DNA of 12,221 bases from Gemmatimonadota bacterium (GCA_036679605.1 JAZDCZ010000088.1:1-12221), one strand, 5' to 3'. Counted from the first letter of the stretch, positions 2,859-12,030 are shown. Notes: generated by a model from the letters alone, not told the origin. Numbers and translations: made by a program.

Positions 2859-2972
2859 CGTGCCACCCGCCTCCTACCTATACAGTGGCTCCGAACAGGC
2901 AAAAGGTCACACGTGGGGGCAACCTAGTATACTCTACACCAGTCAAACTCAATGGCTCACAACGAGTTGCGT
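2859..2972. repeat. Diverged ~115-bp regulatory-region duplication (partner at 7484-7596)
   Basis: Hand alignment gives about 86/115 identities. It covers the start codon, SD, ECF-like promoter and upstream blocks (GGCAA, ACACC, TCAA, ATGG, CAACnAGTTGCGT). Confidence 0.85.
2884..2911 (-). promoter_or_regulatory. Putative ECF promoter copy A (orphan; followed by an SD and an 8-aa ORF)
   Basis: TGTGACCTTTTGCCTGTTCGGAGCCACT matches the consensus TGTGACCTTT-N12-GCCACT. Confidence 0.75.
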
Positions 2973-3002: not shown

Positions 3003-3091
3003 CTTCTACCTTCTGGACGGTGCGTATATTTCCTAGAGGTCTGAAGGATGGCCTGAGAACACGAGTCACCCGCGCTACAGGAGGAACCATA

Positions 3092-3325
3092 GTGCAGCAT
3101 ACTGTTAACGCTGTGATCCGGCCCGGCGAGCAATCAGGCTATGTGGCCGAATGTGTCGAACTTTCCGTGGTCACCCAAGGTTCTACTCTCGACAGAACTG
3201 TGGCGAACCTGCAGGAGGCTGTGAGCCTGCACCTGGACGGTGAGGATCTGGCCGACTTCGGCCTCGTGTCACCAGTTTCAATAGTCGCCACGCTTGAGAT
3301 AGCTCCGGCGGTCGGTGCCGCGTAG
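3092..3325 (+). CDS. hicB: HicB-family antitoxin (short form, 77 aa)
   Basis: GTG at 3092 follows an AGGAGG SD. MQHTVNAVIRPGEQSGYVAECVELSVVTQGSTLDRTVANLQEAVSLHLDGED matches the HicB partial RNase H fold (GYVAEC..L..VTQG.TL.E...NL.EA..L.L). Confidence 0.88.
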   Translation: MQHTVNAVIRPGEQSGYVAECVELSVVTQGSTLDRTVANLQEAVSLHLDGEDLADFGLVSPVSIVATLEIAPAVGAA

Positions 3326-3440
3326 GCTGCGGCGGCTCGACGGTGCGGAGGTTGTCCGCATTCTCGAAGCATTGGGATTTGCCGTTATCTCGCAACGCTG
3401 CCCCGAAAGCCGCTCCTCAGCTTTGCGCTCTTTACGGTGA
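3315..3440 (+). pseudogene. hicA: Truncated HicA toxin (homology ends at about 3398)
   Basis: GTG at 3315 overlaps the hicB end: MPRRLRRLDGAEVVRILEALGFAVISQR|CPESRSSALRSLR*. The first 28 aa match the HicA N-terminus (L..L.G.EV.R.LE.LGF....QR). The GSH motif expected next is absent. Confidence 0.82.
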
Positions 3441-4238
3441 CCGCCTGGACCACACTACGATAACCCCACACCTGGCGTCGCTACCGGCGAATTCCCCCGG
3501 CACGCTCGATGGCGTGTAGACCTCAATTGCTTCCAAGTCGGACGGAAATAGCACTACATCCGGTCCCAGGTCGGAAATACCATCGATCTTGCCGGTCCTT
3601 ACACCGTCCCAATACAACTGCGGTACACAACTCGTACCAGTTAAGCCTCCAAAACCTCTCATTCGTACACTGGATTGCCTTCCTCCCAAAGAGACGATCC
3701 GCACGCCATGCATAAGTCGAAGAAGGCTGGTAAACCGATTCACGCCCTTTTCTTCGATCTGTTCACGCGTCAAGAAATGGCCAAGACCGCGTCGCTTCCG
3801 ATCGTAGAAGCCCTGCAGCGGCCCAGGTGCAAACCTCTCCCTTTCTGCCGTCACTGTAACGGTCTCGAGCATCTCGATCGGCTTCTTCTTGGAGACTCGC
3901 ATCTGAATGTCGAGGATCTCGCCGTCCACAAGTTCAAACACTGACGTAACCAACTTCGCGTATAATGAGGCGTCCGCCCGTAGTGTGTATTTGCCGGGGT
4001 CTAGAGCGAGAAGGGAGAAGACACCATTCGAGTCGCTAATCGCACCACCCCGCATCCCTCCTTTTTCATCGAGCAGCATCACAGACACAGCACCAACGGG
4101 CCGTTCAGTACTGTCGTCTACCACGGTCCCGTAAATCGTCTGCTGGGCGCTAGCCGCAGGCGGAGTCAGCAGGACAAGGCCCCCGGTGAGCACACCGATA
4201 AGCAAACGGCGAATCACGCTGTCTTTTGTCTCGATCAT
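3432..4238 (-). CDS. Secreted protein with a carboxypeptidase-regulatory-like domain and a TonB-receptor plug-like domain, no beta-barrel
   Basis: Signal peptide (ASA|QQ). IYGTVVDDSTERPVGAVSV...SDSNGVFSL...PGKYTLRA is the CarboxypepD_reg-like part. LETVTVTA, FLTREQIEE and DLEAIEVY...CGVIVVWSR form the plug. The protein ends right after the plug. Confidence 0.85.
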   Translation of the reverse strand: MIETKDSVIRRLLIGVLTGGLVLLTPPAASAQQTIYGTVVDDSTERPVGAVSVMLLDEKGGMRGGAISDSNGVFSLLALDPGKYTLRADASLYAKLVTSVFELVDGEILDIQMRVSKKKPIEMLETVTVTAERERFAPGPLQGFYDRKRRGLGHFLTREQIEEKGVNRFTSLLRLMHGVRIVSLGGRQSSVRMRGFGGLTGTSCVPQLYWDGVRTGKIDGISDLGPDVVLFPSDLEAIEVYTPSSVPGEFAGSDARCGVIVVWSRRSP

Positions 4239-4477: not shown

Positions 4478-4705
4478 CTAGTCAGGAATTTCCTGGCACG
4501 GAACGGTTACGCAAGAATAACCGTTAAAGTTGCATTCTTCGAAATTGAACGAAACATCACATCCGAAAGCGCCACAATGTGACCAGTTGCATTGATGGCT
4601 GGCTTCTGCCGGCTCCGGGGAGCTGAGTTCTCCGGCCACCAGACCCAACAGAACGACTAGGGTGGCAGCCAAAGTTTTTGTCCAGATGCTTTTCATGGTA
4701 TGCAT
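4478..4705 (-). CDS. Secreted six-cysteine peptide precursor (75 aa)
   Basis: AAGGAG SD upstream. Signal peptide ends PAEA|. Predicted mature 40-mer SHQCNWSHCGAFGCDVSFNFEECNFNGYSCVTVPCQEIPD has spacing C-x4-C-x4-C-x8-C-x6-C-x4-C. Confidence 0.85.
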   Translation of the reverse strand: MHTMKSIWTKTLAATLVVLLGLVAGELSSPEPAEASHQCNWSHCGAFGCDVSFNFEECNFNGYSCVTVPCQEIPD

Positions 4706-4784
4706 GGTATCTCCTTAGTATGTGTGGTGAAGTTGCGCCCCTCAGCGCCTTCCAGAAAAAAGGTTGTGTCCAGTGTGTGTGTTT

Positions 4785-5438
4785 TCACCTGCCTTCCGGC
4801 AGCACAGCGCCCGAATCGGCCCATTCTACAATTGCTTGACGGCCTGGCTTGGTTACCAGAAGCAGTCGATCCCGCTCACCGAAATACAGTTCGTCAGTAC
4901 TGTCCTTCGGAGCCACATAAAAACGCTTGTAAACCAGCACCTGCGGGGTCATCGGCTCGGTAGTATCGTCGGACCAGAGGTACCGCGCCGCGAAGGTGTT
5001 GCCCCAGTTGTAGCCGGCCGATATTTCGTCGAAGCGGCCGAACTTCGTGAGGTGTTCGAACCCCAGCTCAGGTGACCAGTCGAGAGCGACGCCGACGGCT
5101 TTGAACGACCATCCACGTTCCTTGGCATATTTCGCGAGCTGCAACTTGATCGATTCGACCGCGTGCGGCAGCCCGGGCGTATTCGACCACCCGCAGGTGG
5201 AGCTGCCCACGTATGCCATCACCAGTTGTGGACCATTCTCACGTCTGTAGCGCGGGATGTATTCCGACTCTGGGTCCAGTTCGTGAGGGCTGCGATTGAG
5301 CGCAAACTCGACGTCGTAGCGCCGAGCAAGCGTGAAGCCGCTTCCGAGCAAGATGATGACAAGCGCGAACTGTAGAATGCTGCTGGACGTAAGAGACCCA
5401 ACCTGTGAGTGTGCGCGCGATCGTATCCCTTTGAACAT
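4785..5438 (-). CDS. Membrane-anchored thioredoxin-like protein with CxxS (single Cys)
   Basis: AGGAGG SD overlaps the upstream stop. TM helix ILQFALVIILLGSGFTLA, then strand LVMAYVG followed by SSTCGWS, a long helix, strand FKAVGVALD and a cis-Pro-like MTPQVLVY. The fold assignment is by pattern only. Confidence 0.7.
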   Translation of the reverse strand: MFKGIRSRAHSQVGSLTSSSILQFALVIILLGSGFTLARRYDVEFALNRSPHELDPESEYIPRYRRENGPQLVMAYVGSSTCGWSNTPGLPHAVESIKLQLAKYAKERGWSFKAVGVALDWSPELGFEHLTKFGRFDEISAGYNWGNTFAARYLWSDDTTEPMTPQVLVYKRFYVAPKDSTDELYFGERDRLLLVTKPGRQAIVEWADSGAVLPEGR

Positions 5439-5446
5439 GGCACCTC

Positions 5447-6580
5447 CTACTTGGTGAGTGTCAGAACCCTAGCCATCGGGAACGGAGTTTCGTCGGCCGC
5501 GACCACGGTATTCAGGCCCGACCCGAGAATGAGCGGAAACCCGTCACCGAGATACATGCCGCCGGGCCGGTCTAGCCCAATGAGAAACGTGTGCAGCTGA
5601 GCGAATGCCTCCCTGCGCTGCCAGACCCTGCGTGTCACTAGTGCTACCTGAAGTACGACTGCAGTCTGGTCAGCCACCGGGACGAGACGCATTGAGGCGT
5701 GGTAACCTCCCTGTGGAATTCTCAGTTCCGATCCCCTTGTACCCATTGCGATTAGTTCAACTGGCTGGAAGCCATCGATCTCGAGCAGCCACAGCATGTT
5801 GCCGGCTGCGTTGTAGGCCCGAACTTCCGGTAGTGCCCAGGGCGCCAGCAACAGCACACCCGCCTCTTCGAGGCAAGCGATCCGTCCCATGGAGAGCTGC
5901 TCTTGCACGATTCGATTCTCGGTTCGGTAGACCTCGGCGAACGAGTCGAGTGGTTCACCCACGAGTGTATACGACCGGATCGTATAGCCTTGCTCGAGGC
6001 TCGTAGCATGGAGGTAGAGTCGGCCGTTCATAATGCAACCGTCATGGATCCCAACACCGATCTCAAACATGCGCAGGAAACTGATCGAATCCGGTCCGGC
6101 GTCGAAGATGCTTACCCTGCCGCGCGCCTCTAACACGTACAGCCCGCCATCGGGGCCCAATTCAACGGCACGTGGATGTGCGAACTCACCCGGGCCAAGC
6201 CCGGCACGCCCAACCACTTGTAGTAGGGCGCCATCCTCATCGAACATCCGCAGGGTGCGGTCCTGTGAATCGAGGATGATCAGGCGGCCATACGAATCGA
6301 ACGCTACATCCTCGATTTTCCCGAAGACCTGTTCGCGCGGACGATCCATGACACCGACGCGCAACTGTGGCGACGCCGAACGTAGACGATTTGCTAGTTC
6401 TTGGAGCCCTGACGGCGCATGGGCGGAAGAGTCACCGATTGTCACGCTGGCCGATGGAACCGCCGGATGAACGAGACCTTCGGCAATCGGATGCCGCTGA
6501 TTGGTAGGTTCCGAGAAATGTGAACACGCCGTCACGACGAGTGCACAAATGGCTATGCCAACGTGGCGATGGCTCTTCAT
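5447..6580 (-). CDS. 6-bladed beta-propeller (NHL-like) lipoprotein
   Basis: Lipobox-like LVVTA|C. Blade motifs FGKIEDVAFDSYGRLIILDSQDRTLRMFDEDG, VGRAGLGPGEFAHPRAVELGPDGGLYVLE. Confidence 0.88.
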   Translation of the reverse strand: MKSHRHVGIAICALVVTACSHFSEPTNQRHPIAEGLVHPAVPSASVTIGDSSAHAPSGLQELANRLRSASPQLRVGVMDRPREQVFGKIEDVAFDSYGRLIILDSQDRTLRMFDEDGALLQVVGRAGLGPGEFAHPRAVELGPDGGLYVLEARGRVSIFDAGPDSISFLRMFEIGVGIHDGCIMNGRLYLHATSLEQGYTIRSYTLVGEPLDSFAEVYRTENRIVQEQLSMGRIACLEEAGVLLLAPWALPEVRAYNAAGNMLWLLEIDGFQPVELIAMGTRGSELRIPQGGYHASMRLVPVADQTAVVLQVALVTRRVWQRREAFAQLHTFLIGLDRPGGMYLGDGFPLILGSGLNTVVAADETPFPMARVLTLTK

Positions 6581-6581
6581 A

Positions 6582-6629
6582 TTATCGCGACCGCTCGTTC
6601 GTTGTTCTTGTTATTTCAGCTGAGTACAT
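6582..6629 (-). CDS. Short upstream ORF MYSAEITRTTNERSR (15 aa) ending 1 nt before the propeller ATG
   Basis: AGGAGG-CGAA-ATG lies directly after promoter copy B and the ORF ends TAA-T-ATG. The propeller ATG has no clear SD of its own. Confidence 0.4.
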   Translation of the reverse strand: MYSAEITRTTNERSR

Positions 6630-6646
6630 TTCGCCTCCTACTTCTA

Positions 6647-6674
6647 AGTGGCATCGAACGGGCAAAAGGTCACA
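6647..6674 (-). promoter_or_regulatory. Putative ECF promoter copy B (propeller, CxxS Trx, 6-Cys peptide unit)
   Basis: TGTGACCTTTTGCCCGTTCGATGCCACT. Confidence 0.8.
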
Positions 6675-6721
6675 AACCGCCGCAACCGAGTTTCTCCGAG
6701 CACCGCAACTGTAGGTGCGCA

Positions 6722-7378
6722 TCACTGTGCAAAACCCAGCAATTCTTCCAGCTCCACCAGCGAGAGGCTGCGCGACACGAGCCCCTGTTTGTGGACGAAC
6801 GTGGGCGTCCCGCTGATCCCGAGGCGCCGTGCCAATGCCATGTCGCCCGCCAAACGCGCGGCGGCCGCCTCGCCACCCAGACATCGCGAGAACTCTTCAA
6901 GATCGTCCACGCCGGCCGCTTCAGCCTCCCGTACCCAGTTTGGATCTTGCTGCCACTCGGTCGTTTGGAAGAGCTGACGATGCATCGCCTGGAACCGTCC
7001 TTGAGCCTCGGCACAAATCGCTGCCAGGGCGGCGCCCTCAGCAGCTGCATGAAACGAGAGCGGAAAATGACGGTAAACCACGCCAACCTCCGGGTGCTTC
7101 GCGAGTAGCCGCTCGACGGCCGGGGCCGATCGTCGGCAGAAGGGACATTGGAAGTCAGAGAACTCCACCAGCCGAACACTAGCCGCGCCACTATCGAGTC
7201 GGTGACCACCCGCACTCAACGCGGGCCACTGCTCGGCGATCTGATTGCGGATCCGTGTCTCCGCTCGCCACTTCGTAATCGCGTTGCCTAGCAGACCATT
7301 GGGTCCCAGCAACACGAATCCAAGGGCGCCGACGATCAGCACGTTGACCGACCCATTCAATGCTCCGGCCAGCTTCAT
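6722..7378 (-). CDS. Membrane-anchored DsbA-family thiol-disulfide oxidoreductase
   Basis: GGAGGAG SD and N-terminal TM. Motifs VRLVEFSDFQCPFC, VYRHFPLSFH and LGISGTPTF (cis-Pro). A second Cys pair in the helical insert (AAIC, SRC) resembles BdbD-type DsbAs. Confidence 0.93.
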   Translation of the reverse strand: MKLAGALNGSVNVLIVGALGFVLLGPNGLLGNAITKWRAETRIRNQIAEQWPALSAGGHRLDSGAASVRLVEFSDFQCPFCRRSAPAVERLLAKHPEVGVVYRHFPLSFHAAAEGAALAAICAEAQGRFQAMHRQLFQTTEWQQDPNWVREAEAAGVDDLEEFSRCLGGEAAAARLAGDMALARRLGISGTPTFVHKQGLVSRSLSLVELEELLGFAQ

Positions 7379-7507
7379 GTTTCTCCTCCAATCGTTGTAG
7401 TCGCTGGTGCCGTTAACAAATCGCAGATACGGCAGCCGGCAGTGAGAACTGGTGGCGCACCCAGGACGGTCCCCATTTGCGCTCGTGCCACCGCCTTCTA
7501 GTTATAC

Positions 7508-7535
7508 AGTGGCTCCCAACAGGCCAAAGGTCACA
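7508..7535 (-). promoter_or_regulatory. Putative ECF promoter copy C (DsbA-like gene)
   Basis: TGTGACCTTTGGCCTGTTGGGAGCCACT. Confidence 0.8.
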
Positions 7536-7684
7536 AACTGCGGCAAGCGGATTTTACTGGACACCGCTCAAGTTGATGGATTGCAACCAGTTGCGTGTCA
7601 CACCCGCAGAGTCAAGTGCTTTGCGATCGGACAGGAGTCGTGCTCACTCACTCCGTGCGGCTGTGACAAAGCAGGAAAGTGGCA

Positions 7685-7712
7685 TGTGACCTTTGAAGCA
7701 CTGGAGGCCACT
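7685..7712 (+). promoter_or_regulatory. Putative ECF promoter copy D (peptide 2 and propeller lipoprotein unit), divergent from copy C
   Basis: TGTGACCTTTGAAGCACTGGAGGCCACT. The spacer is unrelated to the other copies but the boxes and spacing are identical. Confidence 0.8.
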
Positions 7713-7835
7713 ATAAGGTGTAGGCACCTGGTTGTTGCACGTTCACGGTGCGCGCCTCTTCAGAGCGTATAGGTATGCCGCTGTCGGCCGTGACGGGCTA
7801 ATTTGATCAAACGTACCGAACAGCGGAGGCTCATC

Positions 7836-8054
7836 ATGCACTACCCACTACGCAAACTCATACTCGTGACCGCGGCTATTGTCGCCCTGTCCGCATTACC
7901 CCTGGCAGTCACGGAGTCGGAGGGTCGAGTTTCAATCGGTGTCAGTGACGCATGCGCTCAGGGTGGTTTCTGCTGTCGCCACGAACAGGGTTCGCTGTGC
8001 CCCAGTAGCATACCGGATGGGCAGCCCAAGGGTGACTACACGCCTTGTGGCTAG
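7836..8054 (+). CDS. Secreted cysteine-rich peptide precursor (72 aa)
   Basis: GGAGG SD (7825-7829) precedes ATG 7836. MHYPLRKLILVTAAIVALSALPLAVTESEGRVSIGVSDACAQGGFCCRHEQGSLCPSSIPDGQPKGDYTPCG has basic n- and hydrophobic h-regions and a C-terminal CC-x7-C-x15-C. Confidence 0.82.
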   Translation: MHYPLRKLILVTAAIVALSALPLAVTESEGRVSIGVSDACAQGGFCCRHEQGSLCPSSIPDGQPKGDYTPCG

Positions 8055-8114
8055 TTAGCTACACTGATCCGACGTTGAGTCCGGGTACGATAAAAGCTGA
8101 GTATCACCAATCGC

Positions 8115-9230
8115 ATGGGGACAGTCTTCATGCAATGTAGGTGCACTCTGCGCCGGGTCCGTCTCGCGTGGAGCCTTTCATTGCTAGCGCTGCTCACCCA
8201 TGCGTGCGGTAGCGAGTCAAGCAGCGGGCTACGGTACGGACCGGCTGAACTCGATCACACCGCCGTTGGAGTCATTGACGCCAAGAGCGAGATCCTCTTC
8301 GAGTCGGACACCCTGGCGCTTCCCTCTGACATAGCGGTCGTAGGCGACAACGTGGTTGTCATAGACAATGCCAATGAGCCTGCCGTATTCGTTGTAGACA
8401 GAACAAGTGGAGAAGTGCTGCGTGCGATCGGTAGACGTGGAGACGGCCCTGGCGAGTTCCGGCAGCCCTGGACTCTCGACGCTGTTTCGGGCAGCACGTC
8501 GGAGGTTTGGGTCTACGACTTGGCATTGGGCAGGCTCACGAAGCTGGACGTAACCACATCGGAAGACTCCGCAGACAGCAAGATCGTTACTCTTCAAAGC
8601 AACGGCGCTGCAACGGGTCCGATATGGACCGATGCCAACACGATCGTGAGCCTGGGGCTCTTCGCGACCGGCCGCCTGGCCGTGTTCAACGTGGACGGCG
8701 AGCGGATGGACACTTTTGGAACGGTCCCGCTCGGCCCGCCGAACGTCCCAGCAACGGTGAAGCAGCACGCCTATCAGGCGACACTGGTTCCACATCCCGA
8801 GCGACACCTACTGGCAGCAGTCACGAGACACGCCTCCCGCATCGAGTTATATCGGTCCGACGGCTCGACCGTCGCCATGCTCGACGGCCCTTTGCCATTC
8901 GAACCCCGCTACAGCGTCCGCTCGACAGCAGACGTACCTGTCCTTAAGACCGGCGATGACCTGCGCTTTGGCTACATCGATGGCGCGGGCACCAACAAAT
9001 ACCTGTTCGCGTTGTTCTCCGGCAGGACACGCGAGGGATTCCCCGGGCGTGCAAACTTCGCAAGGTTCGTACACGTATTCAATTGGAATGGCACCTTTGT
9101 GAAAGCCCTTCGCCTGGACCACGACGTGCTGAGCATCGCCGTGGACAGGGAGTCAACGACTCTGTACGCCGTTACGCACGATCCGACACCGGCAATACTG
9201 CGCTATGCTCTATCCGATCTCGTACCGTAG
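8115..9230 (+). CDS. TolB-like 6-bladed beta-propeller lipoprotein (BF3164-like)
   Basis: Lipobox-like LLTHA|C. Motifs PSDIAVVGDNVVVID, IGRRGDGPGEF, GTNKYLFALFSG, VHVFNWNGTFVKALRLD, SIAVD....LYAV. Confidence 0.87.
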   Translation: MGTVFMQCRCTLRRVRLAWSLSLLALLTHACGSESSSGLRYGPAELDHTAVGVIDAKSEILFESDTLALPSDIAVVGDNVVVIDNANEPAVFVVDRTSGEVLRAIGRRGDGPGEFRQPWTLDAVSGSTSEVWVYDLALGRLTKLDVTTSEDSADSKIVTLQSNGAATGPIWTDANTIVSLGLFATGRLAVFNVDGERMDTFGTVPLGPPNVPATVKQHAYQATLVPHPERHLLAAVTRHASRIELYRSDGSTVAMLDGPLPFEPRYSVRSTADVPVLKTGDDLRFGYIDGAGTNKYLFALFSGRTREGFPGRANFARFVHVFNWNGTFVKALRLDHDVLSIAVDRESTTLYAVTHDPTPAILRYALSDLVP

Positions 9231-9256
9231 GGTTTTCCGGGTACTTGCAGCTCGGT

Positions 9257-11416
9257 TTAGGAACCGTCTTCTGCCACATTCGTACCGGTAGGCACGCCCA
9301 GCGCCTCGAGCACGCGCACGATTCCATCCAAAGAGTTCTCGGACAGCCGTATGCGACTCGATCTATCCAGCACCAGGTAAAGCGGTGTTTCCCACAAACC
9401 GAGCGCGTCGCGTGCCTTCCCATCCACCTGAAAAAGTCTCGGTGCGGACGGATGCTGTTGCACGAAACGGTGGAGGCCTGGGGACTGTGACTCCGCCGTC
9501 AAGATCAACACCCGAACCCCGCGTGATTCATAGCGGGCAGTGACTTCCTGCAAGCGCGGCAGTTGATCGAGACACGGGGCGCACAACCAGGACCAGAACG
9601 CCACGAGCGTAACTTGGCCGCCCACGAGTTCGTCTAGCCTATAACTTGCACCCGCCGAGTCGGTCAACTCCACGCCGCCGGGCACAAAGGTGTTGCTCGT
9701 GCCTGCCAGAACGCGCTCGTACATCTCGTTTCGTGCGACCCTCTTCAGCTCTGTCCATCGAGCGCCGTTCACAAGACCGGTCGCCAGCGCCGCAAGCGAA
9801 TCCCGGGCAGCAGTCGTGGTATTCGGGTCGACCGCCAGTCTGGCCAACATGCCAACCGCACCGGCCGTATCGGCAATGCCGAGCCTTACCTCGGCCGATA
9901 CCCCAAAGACCTCCGTATCCCAGCCGGCCGCCGCCTGGTCCAGAGCGTCGAGACCGGCATCGGTGTCGCCCAACTGCACCAGCGCCCTACCTAGCGGTGC
10001 GAGAACTCGGCCACGCTCCGCCTCGTCGTAGCGCCGCTGCTCTGCGGCGGTGCGAGTCAGAGGCCGTCTCCAGCCGGCATCGGTGTCAGCGCGTGCCAGT
10101 GCACCACGCAGCCGCTCTACAGCGACCCTTCTCAATTCCGGCACCTCGGCCAGTTGCTTCGCTACGGCAAGTGCCGCCCACGGTTCCAGCGCCACGCGGC
10201 GGTCGGCCCATCGCAGTATCGCGTCCGGGTTTCCCGCCCGCATTGCCACAGAAAGCGCCATCAGAGGCAGCTGGAAGGAGACTGGGCCAACCTCTTGCCA
10301 CAGCCCTTCCAGTTCCCGCAGCGCACCAGCGCGATCGCTCCCATGTGCGGCTATGATCCGAAAGACACGTTGTTGCACTGCCTGAGGATGGCCCGGTGCT
10401 TCACTTAGCAGCCTGTCCCGCCAGTAATCAACCTTTTCCGGACCTTGCTCTGCGATGAATCCCAGCCAGTACAGTCCCGCCAACGTGTCACCGCTAAGCG
10501 ATATTTCATTGGTGAACCGGCTATGCAACTCCTCGTAGCGCGCTCTCCAACGTCCAGAGAAATCGGTCACGCCGCGTGATTGGTATAAATTTTCCTCGAA
10601 CCCCGCTAGTCGCGACCAGGCATTGGGATTGTCGGGATATAGCTCGGTGGCCCGTCTCGCAGCTTCCAGTCCTCCTTGCCAGTTTCGCTCGCTCAAATCG
10701 TTTTGTTGCTGCACCAACGCGCGATAATCCGGCTCCTCGCCATTGAAGACCAGAAGCTCCCACAACGCACGACGGTTGCTGTCAACTCGCGCACCCAGCG
10801 TATCCTCCACCGCGAATACCGCGTACACCACCGAGTCGGGAAGCTGAACGGTGCCCTCGAATTTCCCGCGTCCAACTTTGTCCAGCTGGCCCACCACAAT
10901 CTGTCGGGCACCCGGATTGTACTCCCGATCGGTGGCCATTCTGTAGCGAGCGCGGAGCACCAGCCGATCTTCGCCCGCGAGCATCGAGGTACTGCGGTAC
11001 TCCACAGCAATCAGATCGCCGCGCTCGGGCTTCTCGGGTGTCAAGATCAACTCTCCCGACATCCGCTCGGCCCCCAAGTCCGGAAGCGAGCGAACCATGA
11101 GAGCGCCTGCGCCCACCAGGGCAACCAGCGCGGCGGCTATCATGCCCAGTCGTTTGGGCAGCGCCGGAAACGGGTCGGACAACGGTAGCACCACCCGCTC
11201 TCCCGCCGCACGCCGCGCCAGGACGCGTTCTAAGATCTCCACGGGCGGTTTCTCGTCCGGCAATGATCTGAGCCGCTCGTCCAAATCCCGAATCGATACA
11301 ACCTTGCGCCGGCACACCGAGCAGCCGGCCAGGTGATCGGCTACCCGCGCACGCTTCTTACCCGCCAATTCGCCGGCGGCGAAGTCACATAGTTTCGAGA
11401 AAGAGACGTGTCCCAT
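9257..11416 (-). CDS. Transmembrane anti-sigma factor: ZAS (zf-HC2), TM, extracytoplasmic TPR-like region, C-terminal TlpA/redoxin domain
   Basis: N-terminal H..(GHVSF)...HLAGCSVC (HxxxCxxC). TM LGMIAAALVALVGAGALMV. TPR-like AARRATELYPDNPNAWSRLA and LGRALVQLGDTDAGLDALDQA. C-terminal GQVTLVAFWSWLCAPCLDQLPRL...LWETPLYLVLD. The ATG directly follows the sigma stop (TAGATG). Confidence 0.87.
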   Translation of the reverse strand: MGHVSFSKLCDFAAGELAGKKRARVADHLAGCSVCRRKVVSIRDLDERLRSLPDEKPPVEILERVLARRAAGERVVLPLSDPFPALPKRLGMIAAALVALVGAGALMVRSLPDLGAERMSGELILTPEKPERGDLIAVEYRSTSMLAGEDRLVLRARYRMATDREYNPGARQIVVGQLDKVGRGKFEGTVQLPDSVVYAVFAVEDTLGARVDSNRRALWELLVFNGEEPDYRALVQQQNDLSERNWQGGLEAARRATELYPDNPNAWSRLAGFEENLYQSRGVTDFSGRWRARYEELHSRFTNEISLSGDTLAGLYWLGFIAEQGPEKVDYWRDRLLSEAPGHPQAVQQRVFRIIAAHGSDRAGALRELEGLWQEVGPVSFQLPLMALSVAMRAGNPDAILRWADRRVALEPWAALAVAKQLAEVPELRRVAVERLRGALARADTDAGWRRPLTRTAAEQRRYDEAERGRVLAPLGRALVQLGDTDAGLDALDQAAAGWDTEVFGVSAEVRLGIADTAGAVGMLARLAVDPNTTTAARDSLAALATGLVNGARWTELKRVARNEMYERVLAGTSNTFVPGGVELTDSAGASYRLDELVGGQVTLVAFWSWLCAPCLDQLPRLQEVTARYESRGVRVLILTAESQSPGLHRFVQQHPSAPRLFQVDGKARDALGLWETPLYLVLDRSSRIRLSENSLDGIVRVLEALGVPTGTNVAEDGS

Positions 11417-11977
11417 CTATTTGGTTCCTTCGAGCAACTCGAGCATGAGAGCCTTCGCTCGCAGCAACCTCATTTTCGAGCCGCCCACGGTTATTCCGAG
11501 CATGCTCGCGATCTCCGAATGCGAATACCCCTCGACGACGCTCATCACGAGCACCGCTCGCAACGAATGCGGCACGCGTGCCAGTGCTCGCTCGAGCGCG
11601 ATCCGCGCTTCGTGCTCCGGCGGTTCCTCAGCCACGGCGGACAGCGGAACGTCGTCAAGGGGAACCTCGGCCCGCCTTCTGGACGAACGGTTTACCCTAT
11701 AGGCGGTTCTGTATGCCACCGTTTTGATCCACCCCTCGAGACTGCCCCGGCCTGTGTAACCTCGCAAAGCTCGAGGCAGGACCATAAAGACGTCCTGAAC
11801 AACATCACTCGCATCGTCACGACACTGTGCAAGTTTGAGCGCTACACCGAAAACCATTGCTCCGAAACGCTCGAAGAGTTCAGTCAAGGCCTCCGGTTCG
11901 CCCGACCGCGCCCGCCTCAGGAAGGCCGGCGATTCCAACCGGTCAATTCTGTCCATCACGGCCGGCGACGTCGCCAT
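11417..11977 (-). CDS. ECF-subfamily sigma-70 factor
   Basis: 186 aa. Region 2 is ARSGEPEALTELFERF...DDASDVVQDVF...SLEGWIKTVA. Region 4 is LRAVLVMSVVEGYSHSEIASMLGITVGGSKMRLLRAK. GAGAGG SD upstream. Confidence 0.95.
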   Translation of the reverse strand: MATSPAVMDRIDRLESPAFLRRARSGEPEALTELFERFGAMVFGVALKLAQCRDDASDVVQDVFMVLPRALRGYTGRGSLEGWIKTVAYRTAYRVNRSSRRRAEVPLDDVPLSAVAEEPPEHEARIALERALARVPHSLRAVLVMSVVEGYSHSEIASMLGITVGGSKMRLLRAKALMLELLEGTK

Positions 11978-12002
11978 GGCACCTCTCGAGGCTCTATACT
12001 AC

Positions 12003-12030
12003 AGTGGCCACGAAGGAGCAAAAGGTCACA
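12003..12030 (-). promoter_or_regulatory. Putative ECF promoter copy E (autoregulatory, 25 bp upstream of the sigma ATG)
   Basis: TGTGACCTTTTGCTCCTTCGTGGCCACT. Confidence 0.82.

Follow-up and report, generated by a model that had tools for sequence, protein, structure and literature searches.

The stretch analysed here, hereafter the window, is 12,221 nt of Gemmatimonadota DNA (GCA_036679605.1, JAZDCZ010000088.1:1-12221), and between positions 4478 and 12030 it holds a sigma factor of the extracytoplasmic function (ECF) type with its transmembrane anti-sigma factor, a DsbA-like oxidase and two sets of genes in which a Cys-rich mini-protein, predicted to be exported, is paired with a six-bladed propeller. 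The window is the whole of contig C422 from a 6.7-Mb genome bin (genome G000; 96.5% complete, 6.3% contaminated) that also contains contigs C357, C294 and C212, and its GC content runs at 55–62%, with 58% for the genome. The locus is real and statistically solid, and it is made up of two conserved modules, not one: module A (peptide A, a CxxS thioredoxin-fold protein and propeller A) and module B (the sigma and anti-sigma factors, peptide B and propeller B). Its features are as follows.

12003-12029, minus strand: autoregulatory ECF promoter of the sigma gene (motif), 55 nt ahead of the sigma start.
11417-11977, minus strand: ECF sigma factor, 186 aa (PF04542 and PF08281; TIGR02937 above cut-off; family alignment).
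9257-11416, minus strand: transmembrane anti-sigma factor, 719 aa (Pfam, NCBIfam and profile matches; family alignment).
8115-9230, plus strand: propeller B, 371 aa, TolB-like and six-bladed, predicted lipoprotein or membrane-anchored protein (PF15869, 71.5 bits; PF17170).
7836-8054, plus strand: peptide B, 72 aa, with a hydrophobic leader, an invariant Pro, an x-C-[AGST] motif and then four Cys.
7686-7712, plus strand: ECF promoter of peptide B and propeller B (motif).
7508-7534, minus strand: ECF promoter of dsbA (motif).
6722-7378, minus strand: membrane-anchored DsbA-like oxidase (CPFC), 218 aa (PF01323, 65.7 bits; PF13462).
6647-6673, minus strand: ECF promoter of module A (motif).
5447-6580, minus strand: propeller A, 377 aa, a six-bladed lipoprotein (Cys19) of the NHL type (PF17170, model, fold search, alignment).
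4785-5438, minus strand: membrane-anchored CxxS thioredoxin-fold protein (CGWS), 217 aa (model, fold search, alignment).
4478-4705, minus strand: peptide A, 75 aa, with a Sec-type leader and a six-Cys, anionic, hypervariable core; GGAG ahead of the ATG.
7936-11181, no strand assigned: exchanged tract shared with C357 at 91% identity, with flanks at 66–68%.

The open reading frames (ORFs) of the original prediction lie where it had placed them and carry the expected Pfam domains, with one correction: peptide B, first given a start at 7803 and 83 aa, begins at the ATG at 7836, which is preceded by a GGAGG site, and its 72 aa hold five Cys, an odd number. Signal peptides were called throughout by a hydrophobicity heuristic together with alignment, without SignalP. 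The predicted pairing of Cys-rich peptides with propeller lipoproteins holds as far as the pairs go, but the lipobox of propeller B is non-canonical, and several of its homologues have no Cys at all. As had been reported, the window holds no tailoring enzyme for ribosomally synthesized and post-translationally modified peptides (radical SAM, YcaO, lanthipeptide or DUF692), and none is found among 77 neighbouring proteins at related loci (77 of the 171 called proteins, 18 loci, scanned at E≤1e-12).

The sigma factor holds regions 2 and 4 only. The sigma/anti-sigma pair was correctly recognized from the outset, given that PF04542 and PF08281 in the one protein and PF13490 (zf-HC2; 24.4 bits, cut-off 22.2) in the other score above cut-off. 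The anti-sigma factor is laid out as a cytoplasmic zinc-binding anti-sigma (ZAS) domain, one transmembrane helix (approximately residues 90-108), a periplasmic beta-rich part that is putatively Ig-like, a TPR-like part and a C-terminal TlpA-like domain (AhpC-TSA/Redoxin). The HxxxCxxC ZAS motif and the hydrophobic stretch are kept across the anti-sigma family, whose profile matches ChrR, RsiW and, at E 7.7e-6, the N-terminus of DdvA; judged by sequence, sigma and anti-sigma factor belong to the class I type of ECF/ZAS systems. Most of the named records in which the 719-aa protein has relatives are from Gemmatimonadota. The C-terminal domain matches TlpA/ResA thioredoxins and has CAPC in the window copy, and it had been counted with the DsbA (CPFC) and the CxxS protein as one of three dedicated thioredoxin-fold proteins. 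It drops out of that list, since CAPC is not a conserved redox centre: the first active-site Cys is present in 15/15 homologues without a peptide and in only 4 of the 24 peptide-linked ones, where the second is kept in three. This loss looks as if sensing had passed to the peptide-propeller pair. On a quick anti-sigma tree the peptide-linked label takes five changes, at least three of them forced. A mixed disulfide between the odd Cys of peptide B and the thioredoxin Cys of the anti-sigma factor was considered and ruled out, the latter being missing in 20 of the 24 peptide-linked proteins. At some loci (L029-L032 and L151:10186-11967) the periplasmic body occurs without a ZAS domain, in some cases with its own leader and without a sigma gene, which suggests that in origin it was an independent exported protein.

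All four transcription units have the motif GTGACCTTT-N13-CCACT 55–159 nt upstream of them, and a fifth copy lies elsewhere in the window, where about 7e-5 copies are expected by chance; a shared promoter ahead of every unit is therefore retained from the original prediction. A looser pattern occurs seven times in the 6.7-Mb genome, with five copies inside the window, and the other two, on C212, are near-exact duplicates of the sigma promoter, one preceding a frameshifted sigma paralog. Both extra copies adjoin another module A, a DsbA gene and an AraC-like regulator (C212:129263-139289, L001). With a weight matrix, eight sites score at least 24, five of which are the training set, compared with 0 and 1 in two shuffles. 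We infer that the promoter belongs to the sigma family of the locus. A scan for sigma-70 promoters and terminators gave hits at chance level. Local, autoregulated, near-consensus ECF regulons are described in PMC7776599, and the promoter pattern seen here fits that description.

Three paralogous sigma-anti-sigma-peptide-propeller loci are present in the genome, each repeating its own promoter variant and each with different outputs. The C422 variant, GTGACC/CCACT, has five sites and serves DsbA and module A; the C357 variant, GTAACC/CCCCT, precedes the sigma, the peptide and an S8 peptidase (all three units checked); and the C294 variant, GT[AG]AC/GGCACC, precedes the sigma, the peptide, an S41 peptidase and a small Cys protein (four of the five regions checked). 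Where the gene layout is convergent, as in the window, peptide-propeller B retains its own promoter copy. Across 65 related loci the position-weight matrix of the window finds no convincing site, and the variant used by related sigmas is another one: ahead of 12 of the 32 family sigma genes stands TGTAAGNTT...GGCAT, a motif akin to that of the window, against 0/32 in antisense and 1.7% of random windows. Under the strict pattern, sites in L135-L154 lie solely before sigma genes. A conserved element of approximately 45 bp (~7575-7640) in the divergent intergenic region, upstream of the leftward promoter, is common to the C422, C357 and C294 loci and may be the binding site of a second regulator. 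Behind the C294 promoter variant there is a 69-aa six-Cys ORF that lacks a typical leader and has no Pfam match (C294:13091-13300, L164).

The exchanged tract runs from codon 34 of peptide B, through propeller B, to codon 79 of the anti-sigma gene. Its left change point falls six codons ahead of the Cys in x-C-[AGST] and its right one past the ZAS domain but ahead of the membrane helix, so that the two coincide with the borders between exported and cytoplasmic parts; a change-point model reaches a log-likelihood of -1531, compared with -1667 for a single rate. Between C422 and C357 the predicted mature peptide is identical, with one synonymous change, whereas the leaders are set apart by 10 amino-acid changes and 15 synonymous ones, and identity between the sigmas is 63%. 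Read from these alignments, the exchange between C422 and C357 is recent, and all predicted extracytoplasmic parts moved as one block onto another set of sigma, ZAS domain and promoters with other targets. Together with the X4 replacement below, this is the best evidence we have that the mature peptide, the propeller and the periplasmic part of the anti-sigma factor would form a matched set. Sequencing run X1 contains two versions of the tract whose depths are close to each other (18.9 and 15.1 in one example), which shows that the tract is no collapsed repeat; the X1 contigs end 30 letters beyond both change points, and the flanks are therefore unphased. Runs X2-X4, from sediment in two studies, contain related strains, approximately 88–92% alike, that carry the locus. 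One X4 contig has 7966-8762 (the core of the peptide together with propeller residues 1-216) replaced by 799 other letters between flanks that are ~88% alike, and another covers 4522-7539. X3 and X4 give little or no cover across 8054-8835, which alone proves nothing.

In a survey of 401 genomes from the phylum, propeller B matches are found in 37 (family alignment, n = 35). Among 29 propeller-B loci, a small ORF with a leader and Cys is present in 24 and the anti-sigma family adjoins the propeller in 20; a wider reading of 20 of these loci shows 16 with all four genes (sigma, ZAS anti-sigma, peptide, propeller) in the same direction, making 18 units (one sigma match is partial) that include two tandem pairs with all four genes kept in each copy. 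Independent support for module B comes from the genome of the window, G036, G002, L028 and L127. Paralogs of peptide B occur in the same genome. Across 31 B peptides (the six-Cys peptides L133 and L134, of a different type and beside DsbA, were left out of the alignment) the Pro is invariant, 25 have the small-C-small pattern and all 31 have an odd Cys count. The x-C-[AGST] motif is probably the signal-peptidase site, and cleavage after it would leave two, four or six Cys. The cores share a mean identity of ~30%, and 25/31 are net negative, with a maximum of +1. No relevant Pfam family is matched by peptides A or B, PF14055 (NVEALA) being found in 0/31 B and 0/38 A peptides, and an atlas search with both returned only unnamed clusters (0.78–0.82). 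Extra signal peptidase I genes lie in or beside six of 82 loci (L065, L069, L080, L089, L144 and L153). In one genus (L117-L124, L126 and L129) a conserved 99-aa protein of no known type follows propeller B, often with a gene for a LuxR-like helix-turn-helix protein (labelled by a look at the sequence) and further Cys-rich exported ORFs.

Module A was followed through 40 loci of ~14 kb each around CxxS matches, which occur in 58/401 phylum genomes. The 217-aa protein matches nothing in Pfam or NCBIfam, and its model (predicted local distance difference test score, pLDDT, 86) has a TlpA/ResA/Sco-type fold (top Z 8.2, root-mean-square deviation 3.2 over 111 residues). Among 41 homologues, CxxS is kept in 28, CxxC in 7 and the first Cys in 39, while Pro165 in the cis-Pro loop is invariant; a profile search returned at least 14 proteins, all unnamed or ‘hypothetical’. 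For propeller A, counting strands in the model (pLDDT 91) gives six blades, and the nearest structures are NHL propellers. Peptidyl-alpha-hydroxyglycine amidating lyase (PAL) appears at rank 26 in the same fold search. PAL-like propeller enzymes have a conserved set of metal-binding His and Glu, and the only His conserved at 90% or above is His30 in the propeller A alignment, with none in that of propeller B, as counted from the alignments.

In 34 of the 40 module-A loci the CxxS gene has a propeller gene as its immediate neighbour on the same strand, and a peptide with leader and Cys accompanies 29/40 by a relaxed listing counted by eye, or 19/40 by a strict filter. That filter passes 30 peptides in the 0.55 Mb of module-A loci, compared with 22 in the 6.7-Mb genome and 0 in reversed-sequence controls. 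As foreseen for a neighbourhood analysis, then, small ORFs with variable cores do recur beside both propellers. Some loci have two to four peptides per propeller. The A cores share a six-Cys scaffold with ~19% mean column identity, their even Cys parity being partly built in by selection on a pattern of at least six Cys, and 33/38 are net negative, with a maximum of +2. The expected recurrence of DsbA failed, with DsbA near only 3/40 module-A loci; ECF genes are near 4/40 and the anti-sigma family of the locus near 0/40. This indicates that module A is a cassette of its own, for which the link to the sigma is local. DsbA paralogs do lie beside other peptide loci (C170, C204, C212, C334 and C415). 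Two joined frames were seen among 60 related loci, one a DsbA-propeller fusion (L154) and one a partial propeller with CxxS (L082). A third class of mini-proteins, with a leader and eight Cys in the pattern CxxxC...GxC...CC.C, which we take to be reminiscent of CS-alpha-beta defensins, is found at C282 (L158), C415 (L160), C270 (L162), C347, C18 (L159) and C89 (L161). Most are directly followed by a predicted lipoprotein of 430–465 aa (five scanned, all DUF4876), and DsbA or TlpA-like genes lie near those in C415 and C18.

Our preferred explanation, which we put at slightly under an even chance, is that transcription of the sigma operon, of peptide-propeller B, of dsbA and of module A depends on the sigma factor, and that sigma release is set by exported peptide B, which propeller B would bind and the anti-sigma factor would sense through its periplasmic part. 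Once the sigma drives these four units, peptide B would be exported by Sec, cleaved near x-C-[AGST] and oxidized to one to three disulfides, and propeller B would bind it and present it to the TPR/thioredoxin-like region that the anti-sigma factor has in the periplasm. Proteolysis or a change at the zinc site would then alter sigma release and close a feedback loop, of either sign. Module A would be a separate peptide-propeller-CxxS cassette that serves as output cargo at this locus, as would dsbA for the window copy of the regulon, and the likely task of the CxxS protein is to proofread or shuffle the three disulfides in peptide A. The paralog-specific promoters and the block exchange suggest that module B is a signalling channel, and the B peptide-propeller pair appears to feed the sigma system instead of merely being produced by it. 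A wider proposal, to which we lean less and which we consider somewhat unlikely, is that Gemmatimonadota have periplasmic disulfide-peptide channels in which a mini-protein is exported by Sec, is read by a cognate propeller and a large anti-sigma factor and releases a sigma that raises production of the peptide (autoinduction or kin signalling), while recombination places the whole input block on other sigma-promoter output blocks, so that a single cell would have several orthogonal channels.

For most ECF anti-sigma factors the signal is not known, and the Gemmatimonadota, abundant in soils and sediments, are poorly studied. Here, a candidate ligand, a candidate receptor, the anti-sigma factor, the sigma factor and the promoters are encoded together in several natural alleles, which makes the idea testable in a laboratory host. 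Were peptide B a self-made signal, this would be peptide feedback through an ECF sigma in a diderm phylum, and the natural swap of input and output would supply ready-made orthogonal switches. The loci are also a source of disulfide-rich bacterial mini-proteins, dozens of them undescribed, and of a CxxS thioredoxin family that has no name yet.

Several observations weigh against the preferred explanation. The 16 four-gene loci all come from one family, ten of them (11 with L141) from one genus, so the counts overstate independence, and peptide-propeller B occurs without the anti-sigma family at L136, L137 and L144. Conversely, of the 22 anti-sigma loci that came out of the genome scan, just three have the pair as a neighbour (several contigs end early), and the anti-sigma factor therefore works elsewhere without it. 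Together with the absence of the anti-sigma family from module-A loci, this disposes of the single conserved system first proposed. Peptide-core similarity correlates with that of the ZAS domain (rho 0.77) as it does with the propeller (0.74) and the TPR part (0.68); all parts of the operon correlate alike, so shared descent explains the co-variation and pairwise identity is uninformative on partners. The regular expression behind the 12 of 32 related promoters was composed after the sequences had been inspected. The exchange events are single and their ends may follow conserved DNA or easy recombination rather than function, and with 6.3% contamination of the bin C422 and C357 could come from two strains.

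The same genes could instead report envelope or disulfide stress with no diffusible signal: peptide B would stay tethered or periplasmic, propeller B would act as a co-anti-sigma factor in the way RseB does, and the state of oxidative folding would be reported, with DsbA, the CxxS protein and proteases induced. We regard this as unlikely, even though the regulon of the locus includes DsbA and the CxxS thioredoxin and its paralogs drive periplasmic proteases. The leaders also speak for it, since the first Cys lies 14–22 residues past the invariant Pro, a long way for an ordinary signal-peptidase site, 6 of the 31 B peptides miss the small-C-small pattern and, if the leader is not cut at the motif, the odd Cys count in all 31 would leave a free thiol. 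However, a housekeeping probe is expected to be conserved, whereas the B cores are only ~30% identical and several copies with separate promoters are present in one genome, and few four-gene loci have DsbA nearby. Less probable again is a folding or handling machine, in which propeller and thioredoxin-fold protein, like a split NHLRC2/SOQ1, fold, hold or display the mini-protein and the ECF pair only times expression. The CxxS gene directly beside propeller A in 34/40 loci, a thioredoxin-fold neighbour (CxxS, DsbA or TlpA-like) for every peptide-propeller class, the fusions at L154 and L082, and the loci with two to four peptides for one propeller would all fit it. The thioredoxin domains of SOQ1 and NHLRC2 appear in the fold search at Z 7.5 and 6.4, but Z 6–8 is common for this fold, and such a machine leaves unexplained both the movement of peptide, propeller and periplasmic anti-sigma part as a block and the loss of the catalytic Cys in most peptide-linked anti-sigma factors.

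Hypervariable cores on a fixed Cys scaffold, tandem peptide-propeller pairs, mobile-looking neighbourhoods with transposases and, in the same genome, a third, defensin-like class each with a DUF4876 lipoprotein behind it would suit toxin-immunity pairs, that is, Sec-exported antagonistic peptides with propeller lipoproteins as immunity proteins and thiol proteins as folding helpers, compare the sublancin operon. We nevertheless judge this improbable: the cores are mostly anionic (A and B alike), which also makes the antagonistic role first suggested for the mini-proteins a poor fit, no C39-type exporter is found in the window or the 77 neighbours (an efflux operon left of 1859 leaves the contig, its transporter lying out of view), and peptides outnumber propellers at several loci. 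Very improbable, in our view, are metal-binding periplasmic peptides under ECF control, bufferin-like without heterocycles. The Sec leader, the abundance of Cys, the acidic cores, the control by an ECF/ZAS pair and the efflux operon of the resistance-nodulation-division (RND)/TolC type behind the fifth promoter copy would fit them, and bufferins, according to PMC11626156, are Sec-exported Cys precursors under SigF/NrsF. The same source has bufferin metal binding require thiooxazoles, yet no DUF692/DUF2063 enzyme is found in the window or the 77 neighbours, and even Cys counts with oxidase neighbours point to disulfides, which consume thiols.

Among class I ZAS anti-sigma systems, to which RpoE-RseA-RseB also belongs, RpoE-ChrR and SigW-RsiW resemble the preferred sigma-controlled arrangement in ZAS motif and profile matches. 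The local autoregulated regulon is likewise as described in PMC7776599. Relative to these systems, the locus adds a 600-residue periplasmic body, a co-encoded exported peptide and propeller, and paralog-specific promoter variants. The closest architectural analogue of the regulatory pair is DdvS-DdvA of Myxococcus xanthus, where, according to PMC11506125, DdvA is likewise a large single-pass protein with a cytoplasmic zinc-binding domain, a transmembrane helix, a periplasmic TPR part and an enzyme-like domain with an incomplete active site. DdvA ends in a CHAT domain, whereas the anti-sigma factor of the locus ends in a TlpA-like thioredoxin; DdvS targets CBASS (cyclic oligonucleotide-based antiphage signalling system) and CRISPR (clustered regularly interspaced short palindromic repeats) genes, whereas the targets here are peptides, propellers and redox proteins or proteases; and an accessory peptide-propeller pair, present at the locus, is not mentioned in the abstract of that paper.

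The peptides share with bufferins, as portrayed in PMC11626156, the Sec leader, the Cys-rich small size and ECF/anti-sigma control, but the locus lacks the partner enzymes, the multinuclear non-haem iron-dependent oxidative enzyme (MNIO, DUF692) and DUF2063, as well as any DUF2282 match, and has propellers and oxidases instead; they are not bufferins. A precedent for dedicated oxidoreductases is the sublancin operon sunA-sunT-bdbA-sunS-bdbB, which, according to PMC6391423, sets thiol-disulfide oxidoreductases beside a disulfide-bonded exported peptide. The locus differs in having no peptidase-ABC exporter or glycosyltransferase, and in its Sec-type leaders, anionic cores, diderm host and propeller partners. 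NHLRC2/SOQ1 combine the same thioredoxin-like and NHL propeller folds in one chain, whereas the locus has separate genes and a mini-protein; the likeness consists of fold scores at the ordinary thioredoxin level and occasional fusions in relatives. Bacteroidota neighbourhoods of NVEALA peptides and six-bladed propellers presumably resemble the peptide-propeller locus: the propeller B family PF15869 is also matched in Bacteroides thetaiotaomicron, Bacteroides BF0058 and BVU_1028 are among the propeller A fold matches, and small peptides with a leader and Cys lie upstream of the propeller. The resemblance rests on the shared propeller family, the peptides of the locus having no PF14055 match. 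A literature search for the peptide-propeller-sigma arrangement, with the supplements of the ECF surveys PMC7826278 and PMC7776599 outside its scope, found no description of it, and the main text of PMC7826278, an ECF reclassification, nowhere names thioredoxin, propeller, lipoprotein or Gemmatimonad; the supplements of both surveys may list the sigma group, promoter or gene context.

Two further features lie to the left of the locus.

3432-4238, minus strand: secreted protein with carboxypeptidase-regulatory-like and plug domains, 268 aa (Pfam), without a motif copy of its own.
2884-2910, minus strand: fifth promoter copy (motif), outside the finding and with no intact ORF directly behind it.

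The 268-aa protein is a possible read-through member; its relatives are near 5/40 module-A loci and in 8/20 propeller-B loci. Over ~45 bp the fifth copy is similar to the promoter of dsbA, and it is directed at a higBA pair and at an operon with an RND adaptor and TolC (within 1-2671) that leaves the contig. The stretch 3020-3440 contains ORFs for a HicB-like protein and, probably, a fragment of HicA.

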